A stretch of 64,000 nt of DNA from Blasia pusilla. Its lineage: Eukaryota. The notes beneath the pieces were generated by a model, which was not told where the DNA came from, did no database searches, and was given only the letters and a program-made list of their open reading frames with translations. Where the stretch lies: positions 16,926,001 through 16,990,000 of the forward strand of contig CM114271.1 in the NCBI GenBank assembly GCA_050084515.1, in the 5' to 3' direction. This document shows positions 219 to 37,763 of the stretch, piece by piece. Made by a program: the position numbers and the translations under genes. How positions within the stretch are numbered: the first letter of the stretch is position 1; each line of letters opens with the position of its first letter.

Positions 219-3050
219 GAAGAATGTCGTGGGAGCAAAAGCGAAGCCTCCAAGAAATCCAAGCAGAGATCCGAAAAACGGTATGCTACAAGCGACGAAT
301 GCTGTGAACGCTGCATCCGAAAGAAGGAAGCAAACCTGTCAGCATATTCTCTGCTGTGAACTTCAAGGCAGTAATTATTTATGCATAACTCGCAACCGTA
401 ACGACGAAATCGACTCTCGTGGCACCCGATTCGACCCGCTCCTAACGATGGGCCGCACTCGAATCCCGAAGAGCAAGCAAGCTTCTACCACAACACATTC
501 GCGTGAGGTGAGGGAGGGCTTACCGACATATAAGCTCCGACTCACCACTCGGAGCAGCGTAGAAGGAGGTATGCCGAATTTCCTCACCAGAACAGTTTCC
601 ATCATATCGAAGACGGGCATCGCATAAAGCTGCACATGCATCACTTGTTCGATTCCCAAAACATCAGACATTCTTCCCGAGACCAGCTGGGTCAGACTTC
701 GTGGAGTCCTAGACAATACCACTTTTCTTTTCTACTATAACATCCACGCGAGAGGATTCTAACACACGTACGTCAATCGAATCTGAGCCTTTTTCGCCAC
801 TAGCTCTTCTGCAAAACGGTCCCATGTAATCGGCAGTAATGCCAACGAACGACTAAGTAAATGATCGAGTGCAGAGCGTGATTGTGCAAACCTGGTAGCT
901 ACCAGTGACATGAATCACCACCATCATGTTCGCCATCGCAATGATCCACCTGGGTTTACCCAAACTGAGGAGGACGTTATGCTTCACTTTGTTGCCGAAT
1001 GCCCAATAACCCACGATGGCCACCGGGAAGTAACACATGGCAACTACCGTGTATGCAACGACCACGCCTCGCCACATAGCAATCTTGGACGGCCTCTCCG
1101 GTGTGGAAGGTATGGTAGCTTGGATCTCCAGAACCACGTTGTGCCCTGCATATGCGAATGCCACATTGCCCAGAGCGTTGAAGACTCCGAAAATGAAACC
1201 TACTTTCGAGTCGCCAGGGATGCCGTAGTCGGCTACGCGGTCGAACTTTCCCTCCGGATGAAGAGGAGCGATCCATGCTATCGTGGAGTAGCTGTTCGAG
1301 CAGAGACCATCGAAACAAACCGATTCACGACAAGTTCAGATATTCGAAGATTTCATTCATGATTCGTTTAGGCGATAGCGATCGAAGTTGTGAGTTCGGG
1401 GTGTTGGTTTTTTCTTTTTTTTTCTACGTTTAGGAGCTTGAGAAATCACAGCCCACGATCTTACCTCAAAGACATGATCGCAGCTGCGAGGGACACGCCG
1501 GCGATGGAGTTGAAGTTGGGTAGCTGTGAGAGGAAGAAGTGCTGGGATGCGAAGATGATCATCCAAGCCGACTTGCCTATATGGCCACAGTGAGAATCGG
1601 AGTCGTCGACAGCGTCTTCAGGGCAATGGACTAAGCTGTAGAACTTCTCCAGCGATTCGCCGCCTGCCACCATGTACACGATATCGACTCCGATGTCCAC
1701 GATGAGTTGCTGTGGTACCACAATCCACAGCCCCAGTTTCGGCCCGAAAGCTTGCTGCCCCAACTCATGGTACCGATCGAATCTCTTGCCGGGAACCATC
1801 TCGTGCATCTCCACCATTTGCCACAAAGTGTAGAGCGTAATCATCCACGAACCTACGAGAACGACGATCCCGGCTTCCCTGTTGGAAATCATAATCCAGC
1901 GCACTCGTCAGAATCAGCTGGCAGCTCACTAACAAGCCCATCTTCCCCATCCGCAGTGCTCTCATCGTTTCTTCATATATTTCCCACTTCGATGATCGGT
2001 CGCCCTCGACATAGAGAACAGCTTCTACACATTCGAACACTAATCTGAGACGCTCAGCAGAACCTACTACAGCCTCGTTCGCATCAGGTTCGTAGCGAGA
2101 GGAGACCGATCCCCGAGCTTCGAGGAAGCGGCTCTACTACTTACCAGCCCAAGTAGGCCATAGCCGCAGGGAGACCCAGCACACCGGCCCCCACCATTGC
2201 CGTCACATTGTGGAAGGCAGAATACCACCATTTCGCGTTTCGAGATCCTGTGACTGGAAGCCAGTCTTCGACCTCCTTCAGCTTGATAGCAGTCGGGTGT
2301 CGCAGTCCCTCCACATATCCGTCGTCGTCCTGCGCAACACATGACGAAACGTCAGGAAATGGAAGCGAAACCTCCTTCAAATCTGCAGGCACTGCTCCTT
2401 CTCACCTGGGCAGTAATCCTCGAGAGGAGAGGAGAGCAAAGCGCGAACTTGCGAATACCTTGGATACAAAAAGTGATTGCTTCTGCGTTTCTTGGGTGCG
2501 AATGCATGAAGCACAGGTCTGCAGCTTGCGTGCCGAAGCTGGAAACCGTGCGTGAGATTCGATTTCCAGGCGTCTCGTGTGAAATGCAATGAATGCAAAT
2601 GTGGAGCTTGAGTTCGATCACACAAGCATCCTTCCTGCTAGTTTCTCAAGAGATTGAGACATTCGCAAGAAACAAACAGCGCTCGACAGCCATGTCTCAA
2701 GAGAAGTGCGCATCAGAGTTTCGTCCGACGGTCGAAACGACGAGTCCCGAGCAATAATAATAATAATAATAATCAAACTAATACTAATACTACTACTACT
2801 GCTCGCGATGCATGCTTAGATCGGATGGGAAAATCTTATCATCGTACCACAGATCTATCGATCTTTAGGATACAGATCGAAGACGTTGTTTCTACAGTAG
2901 TAAAGCCTCGACGACTGGCAACACGAACCCCAGTCGAACAGGAACAGACGGAGAATGACTCCAGCTCCCTGAAGCAGACCCCCCAATCGTCTTCAATCCA
3001 ACCACACAACAACAGCAATGCAGCCTACATCTGGAAGTAGTCGAATTCAT
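219..3050 (-). CDS. LHT: Lysine/histidine transporter (LHT)-type amino-acid permease, multi-exon; last exon lies beyond the window start
   Basis: GT-AG exons in consistent phase at 2382-2145 ([32 protein letters not shown]), 1878-1465 ([25 protein letters not shown]), 1291-892 ([22 protein letters not shown]), 629-524 ([12 protein letters not shown]) and 310-219 ([20 protein letters not shown]). These are hallmark LHT motifs. A short first exon 3050-3029 (MNSTTSR) is phase-compatible but tentative. Confidence 0.93.
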
Positions 3051-8399: not shown

Positions 8400-9492
8400 T
8401 AGCCATAATGAGATCCTAAGAGCCATTTCAAAAGGATTTGAAACTCTAGTTTGAAACCCAAATCAGTCAAAAGTTCACAGCAAAATGAGCTATTTGGGCT
8501 CCAAAACTCTCATACCGCCAATTCGAGCATTCAAAGCAGTAGTTATTAATGATTCAAAAGTTGCCAGCGCATAAAGCTATTCCGGCCCTGGAAAAGCTCC
8601 TAACGCAAGAATAGATTTAAACAGCAAAATCCAAAGCATTCAGAACTCTAGTTCCAAATAAGCCAAAAGTTTCCAGTGGAATGAGTTGTTTCCGTTTTGG
8701 AGAATCTCCCATCTCAAAGAATCTAGAAAGTGCTATTGGCAATAGATCTACTATTTCCTGCGGAAGGAGTTGTTCAGGCTTTGAAAGAGCACCTACTACC
8801 AATTGAAGGTAATTTGGAACTATAGTTCCAAATTTATGTTTTATGGAAATTTAGAACTATAGATCCAATTTAGCTCAAAGGCCCCGCCTGTCCTTTGAAG
8901 TAGCAAGGCATGAGCGCTCAATTCAGTGGTGCCTCTGCCTTGGTTTGAACCCCTTGCGATGGCCATAAAGTTGACATCGGAATGTGCATTAGTGTGGAGA
9001 ATGCTCCAAGAACCAATCTAGCACATACTCCTGCATCTTGGTTTCAACCACCTCTCTTTGGGTCTTGTGTATTCTAATAAGGTGTTGCTTTTCAAGCACC
9101 CACTTCTCAATAGAAGTTGTAGACTAGTTCTACATCCATTCTCTTTTAGGTTTGTAAGTGATTACCCTCATGTACATGGTACAGTGGAAGATCCTGTCGA
9201 GATCTAATATCTTTCTGTGCTTTTAAAGTTTTAAAAGTAAGATCTGAGAGGACATAGAATTATGATTTCAAAACCCCCCATCCTCACCCCACTTGCAATC
9301 CACAAAGAATCTACAAGGTCCTCTAGGCAATAGACCTACTATTGGCCATTGAAGGAGGTTGTTCGGGCTTTGAAAGAGCATCTACCGCCAATTGGAAGGA
9401 ATTTTGAACTATACTTCCAAATTTTTGTTTTATGGCAATTTGGAACTATAGACCCAATTGAGTTCGGAGGCCCCTCGTGTCCTCCAAATAGG
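8400..9492. repeat. Degenerate tandem/dispersed repeat carrying the palindrome TTGGAACTATAGTTCCAA (left flank of element A)
   Basis: Motif variants near 8645, 8813, 8851, 9403 and 9440. The unit interrupted at 9492 resumes after 19846. Confidence 0.7.
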
Positions 9493-10010
9493 TATAACGT
9501 CTTTTAGGATAGATCGGTGAGATCTAGTAGAGCGCCTTCGTGAGTAGTGGAGGAGAGGCTCAGTAGGTCGAGGATGACTTGTTGAGGCCCCGGAAAACCT
9601 GAGAGAGCATGTTTCTCCTTCGTTTCGGCTCATTTGGAGCCATCTTGAGCAACTTACTATTTTAGGTAAGTACCATTTTGAATATATGATCGACTATCTA
9701 TTTTTGGTAAGTGGCCCTTGACCTCCTACATCAGATCAAGAGCCAAGGAGGTGACTTGGGAGAATAGGTTACCATGGAGAGAGCTTGGGAGAGAGGAGGG
9801 GTATACCTCAAGGAGAGAGAGCTTGAGAGCTCATTCTCTCTTTGTTGAACCTCTTGGCATGAAGCGGCGGAGCTATGGTCCCTTGCCTTGTGAGTGTAAC
9901 CCAAGCCTCTCATTGGGAGAGTGGGTTTGGTTTGACATGAGAGAGAGTGCACACCTTTGAGAGCTATGGTGTGAGATGGTGTAGAGAGAGATTGGATCTT
10001 ACTTTACAAA
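9493..10010 (+). repeat. Element A terminal repeat A1 (~515 bp)
   Basis: Near-identical to 19205-19722 at a constant offset of 9712. It is not followed by repeat B or by a TGG-type PBS. Confidence 0.93.
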
Positions 10011-11737
10011 GAGAGAATCAAAGAATGAAAGAGTGAGAGAGCTTCATGGGGGAGCTCGCTAGTCACTCGCTGTTTTTTCAGGTTGGGGACCGTGTTCCCC
10101 GTTCAGCGGCTCATGGGAGTGCTCACCGGAGCAAGGGCTGCTTTGATTGTTCTTTGCATTTGCTGATTTTTCGTGTGGAAGAGTGGCGCGCGGAAGCGCT
10201 GATAGAGATTGGTTATGGGGGCGGGTTGCCCCATGCTAGTGCTCTCAAGAGCACCATGTAGCTTGCTGATTTGTATTTTTACAGGTTTTACATTTTGGTT
10301 GGGAGAAATCAGCAAATTTTGTAGGAGAAAGAGACAATCCCTATCATTTTTACCGGAATGTCTAATTCCGTAAAAAGATTTGACCCGCCAAATTTTTTGT
10401 GTAGGAGAAAGAGACATTGGGCTTTATGACAATCCCTATCATTTTTTACTGGAATGTCTAATTCCAAATATTTTTTTACGCCGTTGTAGATCGTGAAGCT
10501 GTGCAAGTTGTACAACAAATGGTGCACAATTTGGAGTTGCGAGTAAAAAGTTATGGTCAATCTTGAAAAATTGCTATTGCTAGGCAATTTATAGGGTTAA
10601 ATTGTTCAAACCCTAAACCAGCGGCGGCCATCGCCATCATAGTCACCATCACCGATTACCGGTCAACCATGACCATCAACGGTCAATCATCACTATCAAC
10701 GGTCCACCGTCCGTTTTCCACCTTTTGGTTGCCATTGCCGCCATTACGGAGTGGAGGGTCTTCCACGACGTTCATTGATTCTCTGACTTGCGTCGCCACC
10801 ACATACTTTGTTTTGGCCGCTACCGTCATCGCAGTTTCGTCATCAACCAATGATGGCAGATGATCTCTGGTTATGGTGTTTGAGTTTTGATTTCATGCTG
10901 CTATGTTGTGATTGGTAGGCGCTCGACGACGATCGAGTACCGTGCCGTGACGCCCGTAGCCGCAACGCGCCGCCGATTGCCGCGTCCTGCCGCTCGTGGC
11001 CGCACCGCACCATCTTGATCACGGAGCCACACCGTCATTGTGGAGCAGAGTGTGGGTTTTTTGTTGATTGAGGAGGGTATGCCGCCAAGTGCCGCATCCC
11101 ACCATCGAGGGCCGTGCCGTTTGTAGCCGTTCTGTACCACCTGCAACGCCGCACCATTCCACTGGAACTGCACTGTCCATCGAGGAGTTTTGAGCAGCGT
11201 CAGTATGGGAGGAGTATAACTTGTTGATTGGAGGATTTGTCTCCACGATCGAGTTGGGGTCGAGATTTGCAGTTGCTGAGGAGCGACATCGACATGTGTT
11301 CAGGTTACCCATTCTGGTCCTTTACCCTGCACTCGTGAGGGATTATGGGATTTGGGTAGTTTATTTGGGGATATTGGATTGTGTGGATGCTGAGAGCATT
11401 ATTTATGTATATGGTTTAGGGGACATAGACATGTGTGGGTAGGTTGTCGATGAGATGATAGCGTGGTCGATTTTCCGCACCACGCCGATTGTTGCCGCAC
11501 GTTACACGTCTCGGGGAGGGAGAGTGTAGATCGAGTGCCGCATGTTTGGGATGAGTGATTGAGAGATTACTTGCGAGGTTGAGAGTGATTGTATGAGAGG
11601 GGCACGAGGGCCATCACGGCGTCCTTTTAAGATTTTGAGAGGCGAGGTAGTGGACGTGAGAGTAGCTTTGAAGGGTTTACCCGCATAGTGCGAGGTTTCG
11701 AGGGTCTCCATGTGAGAGATCACCTCGATCTCCTTCT

Positions 11738-13280
11738 GTGTCATCTTCAGACAAGGGGGAGCATGTAGAGGAGTGTGTTAGTGATCCACCTTACACATTG
11801 AGGGTCCTACCAGTTGGCCGTCCGAGATGGACGACCGGGGTAGAGGACCACGTAGGTTTTCGGGTGTTGTAGGCACCATAGAGCTACACGACTTCATTGC
11901 GGAGTTTAGGAGTTGGTGTGACTCACAACGGGCTAGGAACTGTAGAGAGTTCAACCCGTTTACAGCATAGAACGGTATGTTCCAGCATTTAGAGGGGGCA
12001 CCTATGGATGATTACCATGAGTTCTCCCAGAGATATGCCCAGGAGATTGAGACATGACAACTCTACTATGACCCACACTATGTGTCATGGACAGAGCCGT
12101 TCCCAGATGAGGAGAAGGAGTCAGGACAGGCTACTTCCTCTTCCACTGGTGATGTTTTAGGAGGGGTCACTCGCGCTGGAGCAGTTGCACCGTCTAGTCG
12201 GGTTCGTCCCAGGTTCAACCCCATGGTTGAGTTCGTTGCTGAGTTGAGGGCGAGCTACCAAGGGGTACGGACGGAGAAGTTGCGGAGCATCCATGACTTC
12301 CAGAGGCGCCCGGGTGAGAGTTTTTGTGAGGCTTACACTTGCTTGCGCCGGTTGATCAACGTCACTCACGGGGTGACAAAGGCTCAGGCTATCCAGTCAT
12401 GGTACGTGATGTTGGACCGGACCCTGCGGACACGGGTGCGGGAGGGGGTGCTTCTTATGAACACCTCCCCTACGTTGAGAGATGTTTTTAGGACCGCTGA
12501 GAACATTGAGCATAACATGGCGGAGGAGAGCGTAGCCACCATGGGTTTTGGGGGAGAGTAGTAACGATTGTCTGCACTACTTGTGCAACAACGTGGACTC
12601 CGAGATAGGTCGACTGTGGCACCACGAGCTCAGGGAGGATACCGGGAGGTCGTGCCACAGACTGCACCTTCATATGCGGCTCAGCAGCAGCCGCCTACTA
12701 TTACTTGTTGGTCATGTGGTGGAGCCCATCATCAGCGCAATTGCACTCATCAAGGTCATTGACGTGTGCCTCAGCATGGAGGAGAAGATGGTGCTGCACC
12801 AAGAGGTTATCAGTGTGACTATTGTCAGAGGTATGGTCATACACGCGCCAGGTGTTTCATTTTACATCCTGAGTGACGTCCGAACTGAGGGCCAGAGAGA
12901 GCACCAGAGCAAGTAGCCGGTCCGGGTGGACTAGAGATCGTGCACCAAGTGGTCCTGTTGGGGGACGAGGAGCTGGAGTTGCCCGACATGGTGGTGGAGC
13001 TGCCCATGGAGGAGGTAGAGTCCCACCACCTAGATGCGTTGAGGGAGATGCCGGGCGTGAGGCTAGGATGGCTGCTCAGATACATCATCTACAAGAGCAC
13101 ATTGCCGCTATGGCATTTAGATTACCCAATGTCGGATCCGTGGCATCGACATCATATGGAGCAGCCAGAGATATGGAGGATCCTGGTTGGATGTGCCCAG
13201 ATGGAGGCAACCGCAGTTATGACGCGTGGAGCAGCCGCAGAGTTGGATCCACAGCGAGGGGAAGCCAGGAAACAGACTAG
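11738..13280 (+). pseudogene. gag: Element A gag (capsid-like region, two CCHC zinc knuckles, RG-rich tail), disrupted
   Basis: FQRRPGESFCEAY capsid-like motif. CWSCGGAHHQRNC and CDYCQRYGHTRARC knuckles. Several in-frame stops. Collinear with ORFs in copy B (40868 downward). Confidence 0.8.
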
Positions 13281-13389
13281 GCTTCCTCTGTCTTTCACAT
13301 TGTCCGAGGCGATGAGGACCCCATCGATGGGTCCTGATCAGAGTTCCTGGAGAGTTGGTGATGTTGTTGGTGTGTAGGCACGGAGGGCG

Positions 13390-14200
13390 ATGGGAGAAGC
13401 GAGTGCGACGACTCCTATTGTTGATGCTCAGGAGGGGCATGTATCGAGCACGTTGTTGGGGGCGGCCACCATTGTGTACCGCGCTCCTTTATTTTTTGCT
13501 TCCGATGTTATGACGTTGGGGGGTACGCCCAGCGAGGCTTTTTGGCTGGCCGCTATGCTATGTGAGCGTGGAGTTGGAGTTCTTGCATCACATTTAGAGG
13601 TGATTGAAGAGGAGGTGATGGACCTGCCCTTGGAGCGAATACTCGGGCCGTCCACGTCAGATTCATGGCAAGCTGCGACTGCTAAGATGGCGGAGATGCC
13701 CGCTAGACCCGCGATAGAGCGTGCCATGGCTTCTCCTGGTGTTGTGTTGCTGGATAACCGAGGAGCGGTCTTCCAGTTGGTGAGTCCCGAAGGTAGAACT
13801 TTTAGTCCGCAGCGCGTCTTGTTGGATTCAAGAGCACAACCCCTGATGTTGGGGAAAGCGTCATTCAGAGGATTGGGCTTGACGAGAGTCGATGTGGAGC
13901 GTTGTCCATTCTGGATACAGAAATTCTTGGGTGGAGCAAGTACCACACAGTATATCACCCGACAGGAGGTCGTGGTGAGGATTCACCTGGGACATCCTAC
14001 ATATGAGTCTGTGGTGCGAGCCAAGGCGATAGTGACAGATGCAGAGTCCTACGACGTCTTGGTTGGTGGAGTAGTGTTATACCCGATGGGGTTTTCCCTG
14101 GATTACTGGGAGGAGTCAGCGTCCTACAGACCAAGATGGCAATCAGGTGATGGGCGCCTTAGCTCATTACGCATTCGATTCACAGGTGCAGTGATCACTG
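13390..14200 (+). pseudogene. Element A retropepsin-like aspartic protease
   Basis: RVLLDSRAQP (DSGA in copies B and C) and downstream YDVLVG motif. Confidence 0.85.
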
Positions 14201-14559
14201 CACCTGTGAATGTTGCTAAGGTCGCCATCTCTCGCCAAGAGAGATGGCGACCTTAGCAACATTTAGCAGTGCCATCACTTGGCCTAGTGATTTGATTAAG
14301 GGACACGTCCATGCAGAGGATACTCTCATTCCTGACATTTCTATGGAGAGGAGTGTTATGGTAGCCGCATCATTCCGTGGAGGAGAGGTGCCGCTGTGGG
14401 GCTCGACTGAGGAGCTTCGACGATTAGCAGATGAGCCCGGTCAGACCGCGTGGAGCGAGGCGTTTGCACCGGAGAGTGACGGATCTGAGGAACCCGAGGT
14501 AGCAGGGAGTGCTACGATGACACCCTTGGATACCACACCCATTGTGTGGTGTACCCCGG

Positions 14560-15480
14560 AGGAGGATATTCGAGTGTTAGATCTCTTTAGAGGGATTAGC
14601 ACCGAGTTAGTTGTTTTCTTGCAAGCAAGAGTGCAAGTACATCAGTACCTATATGTGGAGAGTGATGATGTTGCGAGGCGCGTCTCACTACGACATGTGG
14701 TGCAATTACGCTTACATTTTCCCGACTTATTGTCTGCGCCCGCGGTATAGGGGTACCATAGTTCCCTACTGAGGGATATTTTGTTGTTGGGGGCGTAGGA
14801 CTTAGAGCGGGTAGGGACCATTGATTTGGTTATTTCTGGTTGGCTATGTCAAGGCCAATCGAGTGCTGGACGAGGCAGCGGGTTGGCTGACACTCGGTCT
14901 AGGTTGTTTTGGGAGATGTTGAGGGTCTTACAGCAGTTGCAGGAGCACCAGTCTCGTTCTCCAGCCTACATTCTAAAGAATGTGCGGATCTTAGGAGACT
15001 CTAGGTCACGGGTGGTGACGAGTGCTCATCAAGTGCATGCCTCGATTGGCCCAGTAGTGTTCTTGGATGTAGTAAGTGTAGGTTCTAAAGCCCATCGCCG
15101 GCATCTATGGTGGACCAACTTGGTGCCCCATGCGGTGTTACGAAAGGCATATGCGAGAGTGGAGCGCCCCTCCCATTTGTTAGTGGATTCTATTCTTGAT
15201 CCGAGTCGTCGCTCACAGGCAGTGAGGCACGATGATCAACCACCGTTGACTGTGGTCAACAAGGTAAGCAAGCCGCGAGGAGCCTTTCCCACGCTTGTGA
15301 GTTTTTGTGCTTCCTATGCATACAAGAAGGCCGGTCCTGGCTTGGTTTGGGATGACCAAGTTTAGAGGTTGGTGGAGCCCAACGTCGATGAGAGAGAGCG
15401 GGCGATGGGATTTCCAACAGGAGTGATGGCATGGATCTTCAGCTTGGGAGTGGCTGAGCAGCGTCGGATGAGATCGCGAC
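14560..15480 (+). pseudogene. Element A DNMT3-like C5 cytosine methyltransferase domain, disrupted
   Basis: Motif I IRVLDLFRGI. Motif II YLYVESD. Motif IV IDLVISGWLCQG (GWPC in copy C). Motif VI YILKNV (ENV in copy C). Motif VIII AHRRHLWWTNL. Motif IX ERERAMGFP. Motif X is deleted here but present in copies B and C (VLGQAM / RRHVLGRAM). Confidence 0.9.
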
Positions 15481-15809
15481 AGATCACAGCGGTTGTGTTG
15501 GTGAGCCCCATGCCAACCGAGACGGTGGAGGAAGTGGCTGGGGGCGAGACCCGAGGAGATCGACACACCAGGGGAGATCGGGAGAGACACCCTTGGACTT
15601 CTTGGGATGTTTTGCATGTACGCTAGGAGATGATAGCGACAGCATCGAGCATGGTTCCGGGCACTGCATGTGGAGGAGATCAGAGTTTGCAATTGGCTGC
15701 ACGAGAGCGGTCGAGTGTTGTTGTTCGAGACGGGATTGTACCATAGCAACCACCGATATCCACGCCAGAGAGTCCTACTGTAGTCACCATGGAGAACTGG
15801 GAGCCAGAT

Positions 15810-17240
15810 ATGGGCCCTAAGTTGATAGGAGGAGAGCGGCGCCAAATATATCAGTTCCTCAAGAGTTATAGGAGCTGCTTTGCGTTTAGCATGGAGGATT
15901 TGGGTATGTTGAAGGGGCCGGAGATCCGCATTGAGTTGTCGAGTGATACGTCGATCTTTTGACAACACTACAGGTACAATGATATGGAGAGGGCTCTGAT
16001 TCAGAGTAGTAGCCAGGACTTGGTTGGAGCAGGACTAGTGGAGATGTTGCATGGGGAGTATGCATCTGCCACTGTCATGCCCGCCAAGAAGGATGTGCAT
16101 GGCAACTGGACGTATAGGCGGATGTGTGGGGATTACCGACCTATCAATTGGCAGATAAAATCCGATAGGTATGCCATGCCCACCTGTGAGGAGATCTTTG
16201 ATGCAATTGGTCACGCAAAGGTCTTCAGTTCGTTAGATTTGCAAGCCGGATACCATCAATTGCCTATCAGATTAGAGGACAGGCAGAAGACGACATTTTG
16301 GGGCATCGATCCTCATGGGAAGGATTGTTTGTACCAGTGGCGGTTCTTACCATTTGGGTTAAAGAACGCCCCGGCTGAGTTTCAGAGGGTCATGGATAGG
16401 ATCTTGGCTAGTCTGGATTTTGCTAGGTGTTATACTGATAACATCGTAGTCTTTAGCGCCACGGTTGAGGAGCATGAGCGACATCTAGAGGAGGTGTTTT
16501 GACGATTGCAATTACATGGGCTCAAGCTACATCCACGCAAGTGCAAGTTCTTTTATGACCAGATTGAGTACTTTGGTCATACGATATACCCAAGGGGCCT
16601 TGGTGTTCAACAGATGAAGGTAGAGGCTATCTCATGCATTCCACGCCCTACAAATGTGAGCCGTGTTCGCGCATTCATGGGATTGGCGAACTTCTATCGG
16701 CGATACGTTAAGGGATTCACTTTGATTGCGAAGCCGCTAACCTTGTTGACCAAGGTGGATCACGAGTGGCACTGGGAGAATGAGCAGGAGCGAGCATTTT
16801 AGTTGCTCAAGGACAGGTTGACATCCGCGCCCATCTTGAGGAGACCAATCAGGGGGCGTCCTTCCTAATTGCACACAGATTGGAGCATGTTGGGGCTTGG
16901 AGCGGTGCTCACTCAGCATGATGATGAGGGTAGAGAGTTTGTGGTGGCTTCTGCTAGCCGCTCGAGCAACGTTGCAGAGGCGAAGCACAGCTCGTATGAG
17001 GGTGAGTGCTTGGCTGTAGTGTGGGCTGTCGCGCATTTCAGGTGTTACTTATTCGGCAATCCCTTTACCATCATCATTGATCATCAACCACTGAAGTGGT
17101 TGATGGAGTCCGACAAGCTTACAAGGAAGCTTGCGAGATGGGCTCAATTGTTGCAGGAGTATGATTTTCAAGTGGTACATAGACTTGGGATGCTCAACCA
17201 AGATGCAGATGGGTTGAGTCGTAACCCATGCTTGAATCGA
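15810..17240 (+). pseudogene. pol: Element A reverse transcriptase and RNase H (Ty3/Gypsy type)
   Basis: RRMCGDYRPIN, FSSLDLQAGYHQL, LPFGLKNAPAEFQRVM, YTDN (YIDD in copy C); RNase H HTDWS..GLGAVL, YEGECLAVVWAV, DHQPL, ADGLSR. Confidence 0.95.
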
Positions 17241-17559
17241 CGAGATGCGACTGGAGCTCGATGGCATGGAGAGAGTGATGAGGAGTCAGTGCTAGGATGG
17301 CACGCGTCAGCCTATTTAGGTATGTTGGCTATGGAGAGCCAGAGTGTGGAGACTTCGATGGCGAGGTCTAGTGGAGAGTCTTTGGATCCCGAGGCCAGTG
17401 AGGAGACGCCAGGTAGCCAAGATATTCATGATGATGGAGTAGTCTTGGAGTACCTTTGTACTGGCAGCGTTGCGAGCACCGTGGATGCTAGAGACCGGGA
17501 TCGGATCTTACACCGGGCCAGACGGTTGCGTTGGGAGGGAACACATGTTTTGAGGGTGT

Positions 17560-18890
17560 GGGAGGATGGTAGAGTACGCGTAGTGCCGCATCCTATGCAG
17601 AGAGCACGACTAGTGCAGCATGCCCAACGAGGAGTTGGGTCATTTTGGGGTGAAGCGAACGTACAGCTTGCTACAGATTTAGTATTGGTGGCGAGGCATG
17701 CAGACTAACGTATAGCACTTTGTTGCCAAGTGCATGGTGTGTGATCGGGTCCGAGCATCGTTCAATGCTCCGACCGAGCATCATTCAATGCTCCGACTCC
17801 ACATTTGCATCCATTACCAATCATGGGCTTAGGGTATAGATGGAGTTTGGATTTTGCAGGACCTTCGCCTTTGACGGATTGTCATAGTCATTATGTGTTG
17901 GTGATGGTCAAGCACTTCTCAAAGTGGATCAAGTTGGTTGCATTGCCTGACAAAGCGAGTGAGGGAGTAGCTTATGCCTTCCTTGACACAGTGTTGAGTC
18001 ATTATGGCGCACCGGCTGAGGTGTTGATAGACCAAGGTACCGAGTTTCGTGGTGAGTTCCAGGCCTTGTGTGATCAAGCGCTGATCGACCACCCTATGAT
18101 TTTGCGAGATCATCCCGAGGCGGATGGATTAGGGGAGAGAGTTGTGCAGACGGTGAAGAGGGGTTTACATAAGTATGGCTTGCAGAGAGGTCACCTAGGA
18201 GATTGGGACCTCCAGTTGCCCTTGTTGGCGATGGGATACAGATTCAGCAGACATCCTTAGCCTCTTTTTCACCGTACTTACTACTTTATGGCCGAGAGCC
18301 AGATTTACCTACGGCCATTCGTCGAGATGTTGGTGAGGTGCTGGACCTTGATGACCAAGATGTATGGATGCGAGCCTGTACTCAGAGGGCTGAGTTGTTT
18401 CGGAGAGTGATGCCCATGGCGTTAGAGAACTTGGCGATTGCGCAGCATCGGAATACGTTGAGGTATGCAACTATTTGGGGTGGTGGTTATCGACCAACTA
18501 TCCGGAGGTTTCACCAGGGAGATTATGTCTACTTGCAGCAAACGACACCGACGACGTTGGATGTGACTGTAGGGCGCACTATCGTGAGAGTGCGTGACGT
18601 TTTGCCATCCGGTGTTCTCTTGCTAGAGGGACGCGATGATATGGTATGGTATGGAAGGACCATGTGCGTAATTGTGCGCCATGTCACCTTCCTAACACTA
18701 ATGGTATAGTAGATCCAAGCTTAGCAATAGTTCTTGCAGGCTTGCGTTGTATGTTGTGTGGTTCTGCCTGTGGTGCGGCCACGATACTAGTCTGTGATGG
18801 ATGTTCGAGAGGTTGGTATATGGCATGTTTGACGCCACCTCTCATTAGGGTTCCTCGGGGATGATGGATGTGTCCTAGATGTACATAGAG
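17560..18890 (+). pseudogene. Element A DDE integrase with C-terminal PHD finger
   Basis: HHCC region, WSLDFAGP, DQGTEF, ADGLGERVVQTVK. Terminal CMLC...VCDGCSRGWYMACLTPPL...W-CPRC PHD pattern at about 18742-18885. Confidence 0.92.
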
Positions 18891-19078
18891 GAGAAACTAC
18901 GTAGGTTTTGATTCTGACTTTTTTTGTGACATGGATGACAGGAGGGCGACTAACGATGGGGCCACATGAGCACCCGGACTTTCTACTCTTAGCGTCCTAG
19001 AGATGTATGTCATGGTAGGTAGGGATAGATGACTATCTGGAGTTAGAGGGACCTAACCATCAGCTAGGGGGGCGATTG

Positions 19079-19846
19079 GAGATATTTTAGTACTTCTTGT
19101 CTTGTTGTTTGGATGCCATGAGTTAGCATGGGATCGTGCGTGTTTGTATGTGTGTTCGCTGATAGCGATGTATGTTGTGTAGCGATGTGTATGCGCACAA
19201 CAATTATCACGTTTTTTAAGATAGATCGATGAGATCTAGTAGAGCGCCTTTGTGAGTAGTGGAGGATAGGCTCAGTAGGTTAAGGATGACTTGCTGAGGC
19301 CCCGGGAAACCTAAGAGAGGAGGTTTTCCCTTCGTTTCGGCTCATTTGGAGCCATCTTGAGCAACTTACTATTTTAGGTGTATACCATTTTGAATATATG
19401 ATCGACTATCTATTTTTGGTAAGTGGCCCTTGACCTCCTACATCAGATCAAGAGCCAAGGAGGTGACTTGGGAGAATAGGTTACCATGGAGAGAGCTTGG
19501 GAGAGAGGAGGGGTATACCTCAAGGAGAGAGAGCTTGAGAGCTCATTCTCTCTTTGTTGAACCTCTTGGCATGAGGCGGCGGAGCTATGGTCCCTTGCCT
19601 TGTGAGTGTAACCCAAGCCTCTCATTAGGAGAGTGGGTTTGGTTTGACATGAGAGAGAGTGCACACCTTTGAGAGCTATGGTGTGAGACGGTGTAGAGAG
19701 AGATTGGATCTTATTTTAACAAGAGATATTTTAGTACTTCTTGTCTCGTTGTTTGGATGTCATGAGTTAGTATGGGATCGTGCGTGTTTGTGTGTGTGTT
19801 CGGTGACAGCAATGTATGTTGTGTAGTGATGTGTATGCGCACGATA
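19079..19846 (+). repeat. Element A 3' B1-AT-A2-B2 split-repeat block
   Basis: B1 19079-19202, spacer AT 19203-19204, A2 19205-~19722, B2 19723-19846 (B = 124 bp, offset 644). Confidence 0.93.
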
Positions 19847-21310
19847 TAGGCGAGGCCTTCGTCTATAAAGATGTGGCGGGGCCTCTGAGTGTTCAAAAGC
19901 CCCTTTGTTTGCACCCCTCGCGATGGCCCTAAAGTTGACACTAGAATGTGTTCTTTTGGCTTAAGAAAAGCTCCTACCAAGCGCCAAAATCAGATCTTAA
20001 GAGCCAATGCAAAAGCATTCCGAACTATAGTTCCAATTGAGCTCAAACCCTCCGCCCCAACCCCATTTCCCCCCATCCCCCCTCTTGGCGGTAGACCTAC
20101 TTTTGCTTGTTGAAGGACCTATTCGGGCTTTGAAAGACATCCTACCGCCCTTTCTAGGGCATTTGGAACTATAGTTCAAATGGAAGTTTATTGAAGGACG
20201 TTTGGAACTCTAATTCCAAATGAGCTCGGAAGTATTTGGTTTCTACCGCTCGAGATAGCCCTAAAGTTGACAACAGAATGTATTGATTCAGTTCTGGAGA
20301 AGCTCCTACCGAGCGCCAAAATCGGTCTTAAATGCCAATTTAAAAGCATTCGAAACTCTAGTTCCAAATGAGCTGGAAGCTTCCGGCCCCCCTATCCTGC
20401 AAGAATCTGGAACATCATCTTGGTAGTAGACCTACTGTTGCCCGTGAAAGGAGCTCTTTGGGCTTTGCAACATCACATACCGCCAATTAAAGGGCATTCG
20501 GAACTATAGTTCCAATCGAAGTTATATTTGACTTACAGAACGTCTTCTCCCACCATAATTGAATCTTAAGATCTAATTGGACTTTGACTAAGTATTGTTC
20601 TAAATGACTTTCAACCGGTAGGGCATCTAGGGACACAATCAAAACTTAGGTTCTCATTCTACATTTGTTTCCAAACTATTGGGATCTTAGGAGCTAATTC
20701 ATGGACATTCCGAACTACAGTTCCAATCGAGGATGGGGATTTCCCTTTATTGGACGCTTGCTACGGCCGAAATTGGATCTTAAGATCCAATCGGACTTAG
20801 ACTAAGCATGGCTCCAAATGAAGTTCAGCAGGCAAGGTAGTTAGGGCCATAATCAAAACTAAATGAGGTTCTAATTCTATATTTGTTTCCGAACTATTGG
20901 GATCTTAGAAGCCAATTCAAGGACATTCAGAACTATAATTCCAATCGAGGATGGGGATTTCCCTTTATTGGACGCCTTCTACGGCCTGGATCTTAAGATC
21001 CAATCGGACTTAGACTAAGTATGGATCCAAATGGCGTTCAACAGGCCCGGTAGTTAGGGACACAATCAAAACTTAATAAGGTTATGATTCTACATTTATT
21101 TGCGAACTATTGGGATCTTAGGAGATAATTCAAATGCATTCGGAACTACAATTCCAATTGATCCAGAGGTTGGCAAAGTTGAGGATGCAAGCACTAAAAG
21201 AAAAAATTATACACACATATCACATTAAAAGTCTATCCCACAATCATTAAATGATAGTAAAATATGCACATTGAATATATCAAATTTGGAACTCAAGTTC
21301 CAATTCGGGA
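19847..21310. repeat. Continuation of the GGAACTATAGTTCC repeat region, including ~230-bp tandem units
   Basis: Motif near 20021, 20162, 20202, 20351, 20500, 20711, 20930, 21141 and 21285. Blocks at about 20500-20710, 20710-20930 and 20930-21160 are clearly homologous. Confidence 0.75.
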
Positions 21311-24300
21311 TAATTAACAAAATTCCCTGACAATCATATTGCTTCACAATCTTTAGCTTCTATTCTGTGGAATATGTTACAGTTCTCGCAATTTTTAGCT
21401 TCCATTCTCTGCAATATGTCACAATTCCCGTTGTATATATTTACAAATATCTACTAAAGAAATTATAATTGTACATATTATATTTCCAATCGGAGGAGAG
21501 TCTAATGTGTTGCTATATTTATGACATCCTCCAGCTCAACCTAGGCAACATACTTCCTTAATCCATCCTCTTCAATATGCATGTGTTACATTTCACGTTC
21601 TATTTATAAATGTAACTAATGGCATCATTGTACAATATCATTCCAGCTACCTATTATCTTCTATGACTTCTCTTCCTGCTTAATCGCAAGAAGATCTCAT
21701 CCTTGGCAATGTCGGTAACGTCCTCCGGCTCAACCTAACGGACATCCTTCTGGAATGTATCGACGTACTACTCCAACTAAACCTTGCCTCTCTCGAAGTC
21801 AGAAAAATACTCATGAAATCCACTTGGAGATCTTCCTTTAAAGCCATGTACATAGTTTGGAACTTATCATTATTCAACTTCAAATACACCTCGTCAAATT
21901 TCTCAAGTCGATATCCTTAGCCTTTGAGATGATAAAACTGAACAAATGTTGCTTCACTACGTGTAAGTTGTACCTTGGGGCTCTTACTTCCGTAGAAGAG
22001 ACACGTCACGTACAAAAAAGTATAGGGTTTTTTAATTGGAATCAGGGGAAGACTTATAAAGAGTCATGGAAGAACTTTAGGATATTTTTAATTTACGGCA
22101 TCATTTATAAAAAAAAATGGGCATTGTTAATTCACAAGGTGTACATTTAAGATGTCCAAGAAAGTAAGGGGGGTTTTTTCTTAAAATGGTGGGCACACGT
22201 GTCAACAATTTATTGGTCCACGTGTCAATCTTAGAGCTAGACCAATAAATGACATGGATTTGTTAATTCATTTTGAATTTTAAATAAATATCTAAAATTT
22301 ATATATCTAACCTTATCTTCAACGTTGGCGGGAGAGAGTGAAGCCCGCGTGGGAGAGGGAAGGAATCTAGGTCGAAGCTCGAGGAAAGGATCTTAGCTCG
22401 GGGAAAGGAATGCATCACAGCTCGGAGAAAGGATCATGGCTCGGGGAAAGGAATGCAACTTGCAAAATGCTGAACGAATGTTAAAAGGGGAATGCTAATC
22501 GTTTAGCATTCTCATTCTCATTGTCTTAGTAGCGTCCAACCAAGGCGCAAGGATTAATATGTGAAAAGAGTCACAATTTTTTGTAGATGACAGCATTTGG
22601 GTCTGGAAGACGAACGGACTCAAGAGAGACTGGCTCTCGAGAGGGTCAAGTTTCCGATATGGATGTAGTAATTATCTTCTTATTCTTGTCTAGTCCGGTT
22701 CTCAGGTAATATGCATACCTCTAGCCCGATTGTGATTATCTAGGTAGGCTGCTAGAAGATAGAATGAACAGTTGCAACTACTCCCATCGAGTTTCCATCG
22801 TATTTGCATAAAACATGCAGCTCACCTGATATGATGGGGTTGCAGGAGGCAAGGCTGAAGATTTTCTCAAGGCGTAGCTTACATTCGTGAACCCAATCCA
22901 TTGGAGCAACTACCCAACATTGATACGTTGCCGCTTCTCACTCATATATTCCGTTTGAGATACACCGACACGTAGGAGACCATACAAGCACGAAGCTTGG
23001 TTCAACGTTCTCTAGTACTAGTATGACCTCCTTAAACCAGCTTGTGCTCTAGTCTTCCATTCATTTGATCAACCCAATTATCGACTTTCCTCTATAACAG
23101 TATATTGCAAAGTTTGGCCGTGAGGAAACTCACCATGATAGTTAATTATTGTGAGGGAAATAGTGGATTACCAGCCATAAGACATGAAGTGAGCTAGAGA
23201 CTAGGATATGTGTTGAGAGAAGAAGAAATGAAAAAGGAACTATATCAAAGCAGGGAGACACTCTCATACATTATCAATGCTATCTTTGTTCTGCCTAATG
23301 GTGATCTATATGGCTTTGGAGACATGATGCACCTCATAATGGGACGAAAGCAATTAATCCATTGGATAGATGCTCAACTACTTATGTCCTTGGAGATCAC
23401 CATGCATCTTTGTCATATGTCACAAATGTCTATAGCCACTACCAAATTCATGAAGATGGCTTGAAGTGGGATGATGTGAATAGGACTGACAAGAAGAATT
23501 GAGTTGGGCCTTAACGAATTGCTTCAAAGAGAGTGCAAGTGTATTTGCATGATATGTTTGAGAGAATGGATGTTCGTCATGACAAAAGCCTAGAGACCCA
23601 ACTGTACTTGGAGGTTTGTAGTGATTATATTGTCATGGGCATACACATCGCTATACAACATACATCGTTGTCATTGAACACACACACAAACACGCATGAT
23701 CCCATGCTAACTCATGGCATCCAAACAACGAGACAAGAAGTACCAAAATATCTCCAATAAAATAAGATTCAATCTCTCTCACAACACCATAGTTCTCACA
23801 TGTATGCACTCTCACATGTCTCTCTTAATGTCAAACCAAACCCATTTTCCTAATGAGAGGCTTAGGTTACACACACAAGGCAAGCAAGACCATAACTCCG
23901 CCGCCTCATGCCAAGAGGTTCAACAAAGAGAGAATGAGCTCTCAAACTCTCTCTTCTTGAGGTATATCCCTCCCCTCTCCCAAACTCTCTCCATGGTAAC
24001 CTATGCTCCAAAGTCACCTCCTTGGCTCTTGACCTGATGTAGGAGGTCAAGGGCCATTTTAAAAAAATAGAAAGTTGATCATATACTCAAAACGGTATTT
24101 ACCTAAAATAGTAAGTTCCTCAATATGGCTCAAAATGAGCCGAAACGAAGGGGAAACTTGCTCTCTCAGGTTTCCCGAGGCCTCAACAGGTCATCCTCGA
24201 CCTATTGAGCCTATCCTCCACTACTCACGAAGGCGCTCTACTAGATCTCATCGATCTATCCTAAAAGACATGAGATTTTTCGTGCGCATACACATTGCTA

Positions 24301-24489
24301 CACAACATACATCGTTGTCACCGAACACACACACACAAAACGCACGATCCCATGCTAACTCATGGTATCCAAACAACGAGACAAGAAGTACCAAAATATC
24401 TCCAATCGCCCTCCTAGCTAGTGGTTAGGTCCTTCTAACTCTAGATAGCCATCTATATCTACCTACCATGACATACATCTCTCGGATGC

Positions 24490-26285
24490 TGTCGTATAGT
24501 AAAAGCAGCCAATGTGTAAACTCCTTCATCGTTAAGTGTTAGATAGAGTTTTATTAGTATTAAGTAAATTTTCTTAGGAAAAGAAAATTCCCATGTTTAA
24601 ACCTCTTTATGATGCCTCTTTTATGTGGGCCCAACTTTAGGAAAAGAGGTAATAAATAAAAGATAACTTTATAAAAGTAAAGCAGTGAGGTTGGTGCTTT
24701 AATGAAAAACAAAAGTAGTCTTGGTTGGTGGCTACGTTAGTTGGGGTAATTTGGAAAATATCAAGTGGATAAAAGAGGATATTTTGGAAGAGATAAGAGG
24801 AAATCTACTTTTGTCAAAATATGATTGGCTAAGCCTTGAGAGAAAGCCATGTGGCACAAGATAAGATTACTCTATTTCGTACTCTTGTGGATCCCTTGTG
24901 AGTTTATAAAGAGGAGGGACCCTCAAGGGTTTATCACCTTCTATTCCACATCTTGAGTCTCTCGTGTCACTCTTGAGTGTATGGCTTTGGGATTGCTTGC
25001 TCTTCCAATGAGAATGGATCATCTCTCTTGGGAGAATAACTTAGCCATTGATATTCTTCAAGAGGTTTCTAGAGTGTGGTGTGTGCGTGGAGATGAGAAG
25101 TTTGTCACCTTAGAGGAGTTTAGTTATACTAAAATAGTGAATATTTTGGCTTGTTTCTTTCCCAATGAGAGTGGATTACCCCTCTTGGGAGAATAATTCT
25201 GCCAAAACCCATTCTTGAGGAGAGTAGAGAATGTCTGTCAAGCATGGATAGGGTGGAGCACGAGTTGTGCCCGACTTTCCTTTCCTCAATCCATACCATG
25301 TCAAGCTAATCTTTGTAGATAGGTACTAGTTCACTCGCTATTTAGTTTACCACTTTGGGAAGGCGTTCATGAATCAGGTCATTCAATCTCCAACTCCGGT
25401 GATCCTTCCTATCGTCACATATGGAAGGACATGGGATTGTACTTTGTATGTCTTTATAGAGCGATCCAAGGATGTCAATAGGACTGCTCAAGTAGGGTTT
25501 AACAGTAGTTATGCCATCTTCCTCGTGTACAAGCGTAAAGTAGTTTATAGGGATTTTATAGTTAGGAATTTCAGGGTCCGATGTTACGAAGAAGTGATCA
25601 CCTCGGCACTTCCATTTTTGATACCTGTCGTGAGAGAATGGAGGGTATACATAATAATTTTGTATTAAAAAAGGAGAACTTCTTAAAGAGTTCACCTTGC
25701 ATCGATCATGTCTACCGCAGCTAGAAGGCCTGCCCCTACTCAAAGAAAGGCTCTCGACATGACAAATGGTGCTTCCATTGAGAGATCTTTGAGGCGGTAG
25801 ATTGTGTTTGCAAGTTGGAGTCTTATCAAGATGACTAATTTTGGGAGTACTTCATCAATGGAAACTCAGGGAGTTGAGGATCTTCTCCGAACTTTGACAA
25901 TATTGTTGAGCCAACAAGGAGGAGTTCACATCGGAGAGCAAAGATCAACAAGGGCTCTCCAAGCGATTGTAAAGAAGTTGGGGAGATTTGATGGTAGGAA
26001 CATCACCAAGTATGTTCGAGAATACGTCTATGAGATGGAGGTAAACTGTGTACCCGAAGGTGGTATGGTGTCAAGTTTTGAATTAGCTATAATACCAGAG
26101 ATCCGTAGTCAAGTAAAGAAGTTGAAAGCAGAAAATCCAAAATCCTGGGAGGAGTATGAGCAAATGCTGAAAGGAGAATTCTTCGATGATGATGTGGATC
26201 GGGTGACTAAGAGGAGTTTTCTAGAATGGATAGAGCAACGTCCAGGGAAGGGAATGACTCCAAATGAATTTTTGCGTGAGTTTAG
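24490..26285 (+). mobile_element. 5' fragment of a conventional LTR retrotransposon (LTR ~24490-25764, PBS, truncated gag ~25831-26285) nested in element B
   Basis: Starts TGTCG exactly where element-B homology stops and ends ...CATGACA. The PBS follows 2 nt later. Gag-like ORF GRFDGRNITKYVREY...SWEEYEQMLKGEF. Confidence 0.8.
25767..25784 (+). promoter_or_regulatory. Primer-binding site, probably tRNA-Thr(AGU)
   Basis: TGGTGCTTCCATTGAGAG matches the complement of the plant tRNA-Thr(AGU) 3' end as I recall it (...CTCTCAATGAAAGCACCA), with one mismatch. Confidence 0.75.
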
Positions 26286-27913
26286 GCAATGTAACCAACT
26301 GTATCCACTTCGAGAAATGCTCAACCATCACTAACACATAACGACTATGGCGCTTCGTCAAAGACAAAGGTCCTGCAAAATCCAAACTCCATCTATAACC
26401 TAAACCCATGATCGGAAGTGGATGCATTTGGCAACAAACAGTTGAACGTCAATCGACATTCCTCGCCACCAATACTAAATCTAGAGCAAGTTGTACGTCT
26501 GCTTCACTAAAAAATGACCCAACTCGCTTTGTCACGAAATATAACCAACTGTATCCACTTCGAGAAGTGCTCGACCATCACCAACACATAACGACTATGG
26601 CACTCCATCAAAGGCAAAGGTCCTGCAAAATCCAAACTCCATCTATAACCTAAACCCATGATCAGAAGTGGATGCAATTGTGGAGTCGGAGCCTTTGAAC
26701 AATGCTTGGACTCGATCACACACCATGCATTTGGCAACAAACTGTTGAACTTCAATCAACATGCCTCGCCACCAATACTGAATCTAGAGCAAGCAGTACG
26801 TCCGCTTCACTCAAAATGACCCAACTCGGTGTGGGCATGACGCACCAAACGTGATCTCTACAAAGGATGAGGCACTACCCGCACTCTATTATTTTCCCAC
26901 ACTCGCAACGCATGTGTGCCCTCCCACCGGAACTGTCTGGCTTGCTGTAGATCATATCCCGCTCTCTAGCACCCACTATGCTCGCAACGCTGCCAGTACG
27001 CAAGTACTCCAAGACCACTCCATCGTCGTGAATGTCCTAGCCACCTATCATCTCCTCACCGACCTTTGGATCTAAAGACTCTCCATCAGACCTCGCCATC
27101 GAAGTCTCAGCAATCTGGCTCTCCATAGCCAGCAAGCCCAAATAGGCTGATGCATGCCATCTTGGCACCTACTCCTTATCACTCTCACCATATCAATGAG
27201 ATCCAATCACATCTCGCTGACTCGGGCATGGGTTACGGCTCAAACCATCTGCATCCTAGTTGAGCGTCCCATGTCTATGCACCACTTGGAAGTCATACTC
27301 TTGCAACAAAAGAGCCCACCTCGCAAGCTTCCCTGTAAGCTTGCCGGACTCCATCAACCACTTAAGTGGATGATGATTAGTAATTATGGTAAAGGGATTG
27401 CCGAATAGATAACATCTAAAATGTGCGACAGCCCACACTGCAGCCAAGCACTCACCCTCATACGAGCTATAGTTTGCCTCTGCAATGTTGTTCGAGCGAC
27501 TAGCGTAAGCCACCATAAACTCTCTACCTTCATCGTCATGTTGGGTGAGCACGGCTCCGAGCTCCAACATGCTCCAATCGGAATGCAACCGGAAAGGACG
27601 CCCCCCTGATCGGTCTCCTCAATATGGGCGCACACATCAATCTATCCTTGAGCATCTGAAATGCTCTCTCTTGCTCATCCCCCCAATGCCACTCATGATC
27701 CACCTTGGTCATCAAGGTTAGCGGCTTCGCAATCAAACTGAAACCCTTGACGTACCGTCGATAGAAGATCGCCAATCCCGTGAGTGCACGAACTCGACTC
27801 ACATCTGTAAGGCATGGAATGCGTGAAATAGCCTCTACCTTCGTCTATTGCACACCAAGGCCCCCTGGATATATCGTATGACCCAAGTACTCAATCTAGC
27901 CATAGAAGAACTT

Positions 27914-36803: not shown

Positions 36804-37763
36804 ACTTGCACTTGCTAGATGTAGCTTCACCCCATGTAACTGCAATCGTCGAAACACCTCCTCTAGATGTCGCTCATGCTCCTCAACCGTGGCACTAAAG
36901 ACTACGATGTCTTCAATATAATACTTAGCAAAATCCAGACCTGCCAAGATCCTATCCATGACCCTGGAAAACTCAGTCAGGGCATTCTTTAACCCGAATG
37001 GTAAGAACCCCCACTCGTACAAACAATCCTTCCCGTGAGGATCGATGGCCCAAAATATTATCTTTTGCCTGTCCTCCAATGTGATAGGCAATTGATAGTA
37101 TCCGGCTTGCAAATCCAATGAACTGAAGACCTTTGCATGCCCAATCGCATCATAGATCTCCACAGGGGTGGGCATGGCATACCTATGAAACTTCGTTTGC
37201 CGATTGATAGGTCGGTAATATCCACACATCCGCCTATCCGTCCAGTTGCCATGCACATCCTTCTTGGCGGGCGTGATAATAGCAGATCCATACTCTCCAT
37301 GCGACATCTCCACTAGTCCTGCTCCAACCAAGTCCTAGCTCCTACTCTGAATCAAAGCCCTCTCCATATCATTGTATCTGTAGGGTCGTCGAAAGATCGG
37401 CGTGTCACTCGACAACTCAATACGGATCCATGGACCCTTCAACGTACCCAAATCACGCATAGTAAATGCAAAACAACTCCTATAACTCCTAAGGAACTAG
37501 TATATCCAACGCCGCTCTCCTCCTGTCAACTTAGGGCCCATATCTGGCTCCCAAGTCTCCATCATGACTATGGTAGGACTTTCTGGCGCGGATGTTGGTG
37601 GTTGCTATGGTGCAACCCTGTCTCGGACAATAGAACTCTCATCCCCATGTGCATTATCCAGAACCATGCTTGATGTTGTGGCTATCATCTCCTGGTATAC
37701 CTGCAAAATATCCCAAGAAGTCCAAGGGTGTCTCTCTCGATCACCCCTGGTGTGTTGATCTCC

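Follow-up and report, generated by a model that had tools for sequence, protein, structure and literature searches.

Methylation is normally a weapon of the host against its transposons, and a retrotransposon that encodes its own methyltransferase inverts this picture. Does such an element lie in a 64,000-nucleotide stretch of the liverwort Blasia pusilla (GenBank assembly GCA_050084515.1, contig CM114271.1, positions 16,926,001 to 16,990,000 of the forward strand; the window), where motifs of a DNMT3-like C5 cytosine methyltransferase (MT) had been noticed from the letters alone, between the protease (PR) and reverse transcriptase (RT) of pol? Three copies bear on the question: element A, the truncated copy B of the same family, and element C of a second family. 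The analysis makes it probable (about 0.85) that the lineage is of Ty3/Gypsy type, with a polyprotein ordered gag (CCHC)-protease-DNMT3-like MT-RT-RNase H (RH)-integrase (INT)-PHD finger, and that the region in question is its MT domain. Coordinates are collected in Table 1.

The methyltransferase domain and its place in pol

Translation of element A from 14220 to 15626 (plus strand, X at stops) gives 469 residues with internal stops at 14748, 14796 and 15363 and the terminal stop at 15624. On its own this product matches the Pfam profile DNA_methylase (PF00145) with E 1.6e-7 and 31.5 bits, above the cut-off of 22, and its relatives score 35-46 bits. The top matches in a search of PDB sequences are the catalytic domains of DNMT3A, DNMT3B and DNMT3C (E 9e-7, residues 115-301). 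The predicted DNMT3 likeness is upheld by these two results, and the profile search suggested for checking it is significant without recourse to a consensus of copies. In a library of 1.84 billion representative proteins the same query finds 1389 matches at E of 1e-3 or less, 531 at 1e-10 or less and 124 at 1e-30 or less, the best at 4e-69. The motif order is unpermuted, with I-II-IV-VI-VIII-IX in element A and X after IX in copy B and element C, and the MT of element A retains 33 of 43 conserved columns.

The original prediction had listed a full set of motifs, and this part stands only as a composite. Motifs I, II, IV, VI, VIII and IX are present and ordered in element A, but the wordings GWPC and YILENV come from element C only (element A has GWLC and YILKNV), and motif X, which is missing in element A, was seen by tblastn in copy B and element C. 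Motif I was seen only in element A among the window copies, and none of them holds the full set. Each of the window copies is dead, whether by stops, by frameshifts, or because catalytic residues or the MT core have gone, and it is for this reason that the earlier set was a composite. Intact catalytic residues are found in none: element A has three stops, PC changed to LC, ENV to KNV and RxR to RxH, and motif X deleted; element C is frameshifted; and copy B has lost the core. A composite list drawn from copies that are each incomplete could be taken to mean that the resemblance had arisen by chance or from stitching three copies together. The score of element A alone, above the Pfam gathering score, and its relatives at E 4e-69 nevertheless rule out such an origin of the motifs, leaving it a probability of practically nil.

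The fold was approached through an intact relative from Calypogeia, P0309. Its ranking of PDB sequences places DNMT3A first (8e-11), followed by tobacco DRM (4e-7), DRM2 (2e-4) and M.HaeIII (4e-4). An AlphaFold2 model of P0309, with a 44-sequence alignment as input, has a predicted local distance difference test (pLDDT) value above 90 over most of the MT domain (approximately residues 300-640). All matches listed in a Foldseek comparison of this model with the PDB are DNMT3A/B/C chains, the best being 6f57_D (E 1e-16, template modelling (TM) score 0.84, ~23% identity), and a look-up in the ESM Atlas again indicated DNMT3 likeness. The window domain is accordingly best described, on its sequence, as a decayed, non-permuted C5 cytosine MT of the DNMT3 type.

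The Pol order protease-RT-RNase H-integrase (DDE) is found in element A, through Pfam RVT_1, RT_RNaseH, Integrase_H2C2 and rve and, for the protease, through tblastn. The MT lies between protease and RT as had been claimed, and the same order occurs in uninterrupted relatives. No Pfam protease match was obtained from the frame translations of element A itself; the relative P0026, a 2188-aa uninterrupted open reading frame (ORF) with CCHC knuckle, protease, MT, RT, RNase H and integrase, has Pfam Asp_protease_2. In element A a common frame holds the MT, RT and RNase H pieces, with all starts at 0 mod 3, in agreement with the original prediction. The protease of element A is out of the MT frame because of a private 29-nt insertion, and as copy B is without this insertion, its protease and linker lie in a single frame; the A/B alignment thereby bears out the claim that copy B reads in frame from the protease into the linker as one polyprotein. 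On these frames the MT was ancestrally fused to protease and RT and is integral to pol. Because many relatives' proteins stop just past the MT, the possibility of a conserved stop ahead of the RT was considered; the terminal stop of element A is out of register with the C-terminal end of the Marchantia protein P0157. The gag-like region of element A looks by eye, unaligned, like the N-terminal part of Marchantia gag-PR-MT proteins. At 14196-14276 of element A the inverted duplication of 29 nt forms a short palindrome that gives an identical peptide from either strand. In the PHD finger of the same copy a Tyr apparently replaces the expected zinc-binding His, as judged by eye.

Both families have split direct repeats in the layout A1-coding-B1-A2-B2 and 4-bp target-site duplications, yet they encode a DDE integrase; where DIRS elements have a tyrosine recombinase, rve and Integrase_H2C2 are present here. 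The termini read TATAACG...CACGATA in element A and TGTCATG...CACGATA in element C. Repeats A1 and A2 of element A differ by 24 mismatches, 17 of them transitions (Jukes-Cantor (JC) distance 0.047). Copy B is ~83% identical to element A and truncated at both ends, and is without the segment corresponding to 14419-15207 of element A, which holds motifs I-VIII. The uninterrupted form of the target into which element C inserted can be read from element A. The coding strand of all copies (10000-20000, plus; 26000-42000, minus) has a strong G-over-C skew of 0.15-0.28, and the flanking host DNA differs.

Table 1. Positions of the elements, their domains and motifs, and neighbouring features in the window
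Feature	Position	Strand	Remarks
Element A	9493-19846	+	Ty3/Gypsy-type, 10.35 kb; A1-coding-B1-A2-B2
Target-site duplication TAGG, element A	9489-9492 and 19847-19850	+	same 4 bases on both sides
Repeat A1, element A	9493-10014	+	long terminal repeat (LTR)-like; 522 nt, 95.4% identical to A2
Gag-like region, element A	11785-13377	+	ORFs; CCHC zinc knuckle CWSCGGAHHQRNC at 12706-12747
Aspartic protease region, element A	13378-14219	+	tblastn with protease part of P0026: 13699-14223, E 1e-7
Inverted-duplication insertion, 29 nt	about 14198-14226	+	private to element A; A/B alignment; inverted tblastn self-match 14196-14252
DNMT3-like C5 cytosine MT domain, element A	14535-15470	+	decayed; motif X deleted at 15430
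Motif I, element A	14568-14600	+	IRVLDLFRGIS
Motif II, element A	14652-14669	+	YVESDD
Motif IV, element A	14823-14855	+	DLVISGWLCQG
Motif VI, element A	14967-14984	+	YILKNV
Motif VIII, element A	15090-15122	+	AHRRHLWWTNL
Motif IX, element A	15390-15425	+	ERERAMGFPTGV
RT and RNase H, element A	15851-17300	+	Pfam RVT_1 7e-28, RT_RNaseH 2e-30
Integrase, element A	17600-18640	+	H2C2 zinc finger and DDE core, split over frames; Pfam Integrase_H2C2 2.6e-10, rve 1e-8
PHD finger, element A	18748-18882	+	behind integrase; one in-frame stop; Pfam PHD E 5e-6, 26.9 bits, cut-off 24
Repeat B1, element A	19079-19198	+	93% identical to 19723-19842
Repeat A2, element A	19205-19726	+	matches A1
Repeat B2, element A	19723-19846	+	3' end of element, followed by TAGG
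Element C	27914-36803	-	second family, ~70% DNA identity to A; nested in RT of copy B
Repeats of element C	A1 about 36803-36434; B1 28499-28398; A2 28386-28020; B2 about 28020-27914	-
Target-site duplication ACTT, element C	27910-27913 and 36804-36807		4 bp
MT domain, element C	31875-32836	-	frameshifted; motifs IV (GWPC), VI (YILENV), VIII, IX, X; tblastn, three frames
Copy B, 5' part	36804-42243	-	gag, protease, PR-MT linker, MT C-terminal remnant (38180-37698), RT start
Copy B, 3' part	26284-27913	-	remaining RT, RNase H, integrase start; no terminal repeats
3'-terminal B-A-B fragment	23629-24490	-	further copy of family A
Tandem 175-nt unit	20774-21161		two copies, 86% alike, spacing 213 nt; just downstream of element A
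Amino-acid transporter exons, host	about 889-2239	-	Pfam Aa_trans E 1e-32
Pre-mRNA-splicing factor SYF1 gene, host	51519-55991	+	spliced
Decayed ORFs with DUF4218	58816-60619	+	E 3e-33

Relatives, selection and expression of the family

The order gag-PR-MT is found in named proteins of Marchantia polymorpha (at least 16 'hypothetical proteins'), Calypogeia fissa, Sphagnum fallax and four Closterium strains. The Marchantia protein P0157 (Mp_4g09160), 1278 aa long, has the gag-PR-MT order, and its motifs I-X are all intact; it aligns with 98% of the query at 51% identity and belongs, at 90% identity, to a cluster of 18 members. Proteins of Mesostigma viride carry the MT close to the C-terminus, with no RT ahead of it. 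The search for intact copies that had been proposed found none in the window and, in Marchantia, Calypogeia, Sphagnum and Closterium, intact relatives annotated only as hypothetical proteins; in Marchantia and Calypogeia there are such relatives that keep all catalytic motifs.

A second layout, RT-RH-MT-INT-PHD, is the commoner one among the matches, an example being a Scenedesmus 'pol'. When 234 related proteins were typed by domain probes, 43 were PR-MT(-RT), 113 were RT-RH-MT-INT(-PHD) and 78 were too short. In a FastTree phylogeny of the MT (181 tips; MT matches of fewer than 240 probe positions, including Sphagnum P0168, and exact duplicates left out) one clade with support 0.991 takes in the whole set of 36 PR-MT proteins, the two window copies and 19 fragments of untyped layout, and 0 of the 98 second-layout proteins; the window copies group with Marchantia and Calypogeia inside it. 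The RT-RH tree (63 tips) gives the identical split with support 0.973, and this agreement indicates that the MT has been carried along with its RT in each of the lineages. The sister lineages differ in where the MT sits, protease-MT-RT in one and RNaseH-MT-integrase in the other, and either placement is monophyletic in the MT tree as well as in the RT tree. Both lineages have a PHD finger behind the integrase (relatives P0011, P0020, P0037 and P0353, and the window copies), and complete RT-RH-MT-INT-PHD proteins number 24. The two MT positions, together with this constant pairing, bear on the shuffling of accessory domains in retroelements. The relative P0010 has an extra Tudor-like domain (PF21743).

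Ratios of nonsynonymous to synonymous divergence (dN/dS) were obtained by the Nei-Gojobori method from codons in the true frames of element A, with element C excluded from the range compared between A and B. Between elements A and C the MT gives 0.24 (bootstrap interval 0.14-0.37, 249 codons), the RT 0.28, the second integrase segment (18173-18639) 0.32 and the PHD finger 0.19; for gag, protease, RNase H and one integrase segment dS could not be corrected. Between element A and copy B the values are 0.39 for the MT (87 codons), 0.32 for the RT, 0.23 for RNase H, 0.54 for gag and 0.67 for the protease. The MT was therefore held by purifying selection as strong as that on the RT while the two families diverged. 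The original prediction had taken retention in two diverged families as a sign of selection, and neutral evolution between the families, as judged by the A versus C values of MT and RT, is not seen.

Raw reads of the same species were aligned to the element at 90% likeness or more (DNA run X20, RNA runs X22-X24). The DNA run matched with 74,281 reads, of which 317 are at least 99% alike; if these near-identical reads stem from copy A, the family amounts to roughly 230 copy-equivalents at this likeness. In 597 reads of X20, from other copies, position 15430 carries the letters encoding the motif-X stretch that is missing in element A. In each of the three RNA runs all 30 bins are covered, with a strand bias of ~10-fold or more (for example 3.0 versus 37.9 in X22 at 14298-14654), and by the convention for stranded libraries the RNA is read as sense strand. 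RNA reads at least 99% alike are few (11, 6 and 13 in X22-X24), indicating that the transcripts come from sister copies and not from the dead copy A. The element is dead at this locus, and the family is abundant and transcribed in the species. At 16668-16700 the RNA runs have a 31-nt skip (GC..CG, not intron-like) in 6, 14 and 9 reads, with 0 such reads in the DNA run, of which ~1% was read.

Counter-evidence, rival explanations and possible roles

Several points weigh against the interpretation of the locus as part of a functional Gypsy lineage with its own MT. The window copies are incapable of MT activity. The elements are not canonical LTR elements: TG..CA termini are not at both ends, and the repeats are split, without two bounding LTRs. 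No primer-binding site of the initiator methionine (iMet) type, the only pattern tried, lies near 10015 or the element ends, with 2 matches elsewhere, where chance alone would give 5.5. As to dN/dS, the estimates are rough: dS between A and C is near saturation (1.7), and the codons come from tblastn alignments, which are biased to conserved stretches. Both trees are midpoint-rooted FastTree phylogenies without a host DNMT3 outgroup and without a Klebsormidium sequence. A trace of methylation in the form of excess CpG decay was not found in the elements, either in CpG observed/expected values (0.74-0.76 in the elements versus 0.57-0.65 in the flanks) or in the A1-A2 differences, 4 of 24 of which are in CpG context. 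DNA and RNA depth dip at 14298-15368 relative to protease and RT, and DNA depth over the MT core is ~314 at 15012-15368 versus ~1200 in adjoining bins; either many copies are without the MT core, as is copy B, or the core has diverged past the 90% cut-off. Finally, the only such domain with a published test, that of the Klebsormidium Gypsy-DNMT3 element, produced no detectable methylation in yeast, a result that its authors call inconclusive (PMC5890265).

The dip in DNA depth, together with the loss of the MT core from copy B, would suit a secondary capture, or a nested fragment of a host DNMT3, in one copy and not family-wide. Copy B, however, still has both MT edges, which points to a deletion and not to an ancestral empty state. 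The MT also sits at the identical place in A and C despite their ~70% DNA identity, the order recurs in Marchantia, Calypogeia, Sphagnum and Closterium, the MT clade also takes in the Mesostigma proteins, and the MT and RT trees agree. Secondary capture is largely refuted by these observations and is given very little probability, and the MT is preferably read as a family-wide component of pol.

As to function, the MT would be made within Gag-Pol and carried with RT and integrase in the particle, where it may act on newly made DNA of the element itself (the complementary DNA (cDNA) or the fresh insertion) by de novo addition of 5-methylcytosine (5mC), while the PHD finger would read the state of the histone H3 tail and steer the integrase. 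The idea of self-methylation is raised in the accessible part of de Mendoza et al. 2018 (PMC5890265). As the main role of the MT it is a tentative proposal, held at somewhat less than even odds.

A role in trans, in which the MT methylates host DNA around the point of insertion, or else viruses or rival transposons, and so would set up a silent niche or hold competitors down, with the PHD finger directing it to particular chromatin, is possible but should be held still more loosely. The pairing of a histone-reading PHD finger with the MT in both lineages (the 24 complete proteins, the window copies and P0353) speaks for it, and a 2019 opinion paper, in its accessible part, proposes an antiviral role for transposon methylases. 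The PHD finger follows the integrase, however, ~1000 residues from the MT in the polyprotein, which makes an integration-targeting module the simpler reading. The remaining probability goes to roles other than self-methylation or action on host or rival DNA. The reading that the MT is catalytically inert throughout the lineage and serves only in DNA binding or as a structural spacer draws on the yeast result. In that assay human DNMT3B did not work either, which is why the authors judged the result inconclusive. Moreover, an alignment of 44 relatives shows little or no variation at the catalytic Cys (C408), the Glu of ENV (E451) and the Arg of motif VIII (R493), and the Cys is retained in 97% and the Glu in 99% of 179 relatives. 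Conservation of residues specific to the chemistry argues for catalysis, and an inert MT is improbable.

A broader proposal is that one very old streptophyte Gypsy lineage with its own de novo MT and PHD finger, represented by members or MT relatives in Mesostigma, Closterium, Sphagnum and three liverworts and still transcribed at hundreds of copies in a land plant, contributes to bryophyte methylomes and marks new insertions. This is speculative, and doubtful as it stands; if true, transposon DNMT3 activity would be a live, unrecognised input to bryophyte methylomes, and the intact Marchantia copies make it directly testable. Marchantia polymorpha is a tractable species with methylome data and genetics, so that the question of how a self-encoded DNMT3 benefits a transposon comes within experimental reach.

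The host and comparison with known systems

Neighbouring genes in the window speak to the host. A 470-residue exon of SYF1 is nearest to Marchantia polymorpha (86% identity), followed by Calypogeia fissa (83%), Riccia fluitans (81%) and Sphagnum (~75%), which places the element in a liverwort distinct from the three liverworts compared and agrees with a land-plant host. The remaining neighbours are host amino-acid transporter exons, a tandem repeat and decayed ORFs with DUF4218, a domain typical of plant CACTA-type transposase genes.

The original prediction knew of no description of such an element from land plants, and our literature search found none for Marchantia or other land plants, although it covered subscription journals and supplements little and absence from print is unproven; nor did any paper found contain the Marchantia gene identifiers of the relatives. 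A 2019 opinion paper, in its accessible part, holds such transposons to be absent from land plants, with tracheophytes as its example, and the accessible parts of later papers speak of Gypsy-DNMT3 'in streptophytes' (PMC12344493; bioRxiv 10.64898/2026.05.21.726589). The Gypsy-DNMT3 kind was described as KnitGypsy-Dnmt3 from the charophyte Klebsormidium nitens (de Mendoza et al. 2018, PMC5890265, accessible text). The window thus holds a land-plant element of a kind already known from Klebsormidium, and the kind itself is not new; in print it stands for one alga, to which the window adds two families in a liverwort.

The likeness to KnitGypsy-Dnmt3, as far as the accessible description goes, comprises a non-rearranged MT of DNMT3 type that is part of the Pol ORF in a Gypsy-type element, DIRS-type repeats (A-coding-B-A-B, compared by description) combined with Gypsy domain content, and purifying selection on the MT, with Ka/Ks below 0.2 in Klebsormidium versus the 0.24 found here between families. 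Both hosts are streptophytes, but here the host is a liverwort and a land plant. No Klebsormidium proteins were among the named matches of the relative searches, which were limited by words and may have missed them, and the link to KnitGypsy-Dnmt3 is therefore one of anatomy only. SymbioDIRS-Dnmt3 of dinoflagellates (PMC5890265, accessible text) is likewise a retrotransposon-borne DNMT3 with DIRS-type repeats, but it has a tyrosine recombinase where the elements described here have a DDE integrase and 4-bp target-site duplications.

The green-algal and metagenomic Gypsy elements of the RT-RH-MT-INT-PHD layout (KAF8056149.1, Scenedesmus sp. PABB004) share 30-40% identity in the MT, have RT, RNase H and integrase of the same types, and likewise carry a PHD finger behind the integrase. 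In contrast to the PR-MT elements of the window, their MT lies between RNase H and integrase, and the two form separate clades in the MT and RT trees. The catalytic domain of animal DNMT3A/3B/3C is the nearest solved fold (as judged from the P0309 model) and has the same motif order, but here no PWWP or ADD domain stands beside the MT, which is part of a retrotransposon polyprotein. Plant DRM proteins are distant DNMT3 relatives with a permuted motif order (VI-X ahead of I-V), whereas here the motifs run from I to X, and DNMT3 gives stronger matches than DRM does. In chromoviruses, which are also Gypsy elements, a chromodomain after the integrase serves in integration targeting; the window elements resemble them in having a chromatin reader fused behind the integrase and differ in that this reader is a PHD finger and is accompanied by an MT.

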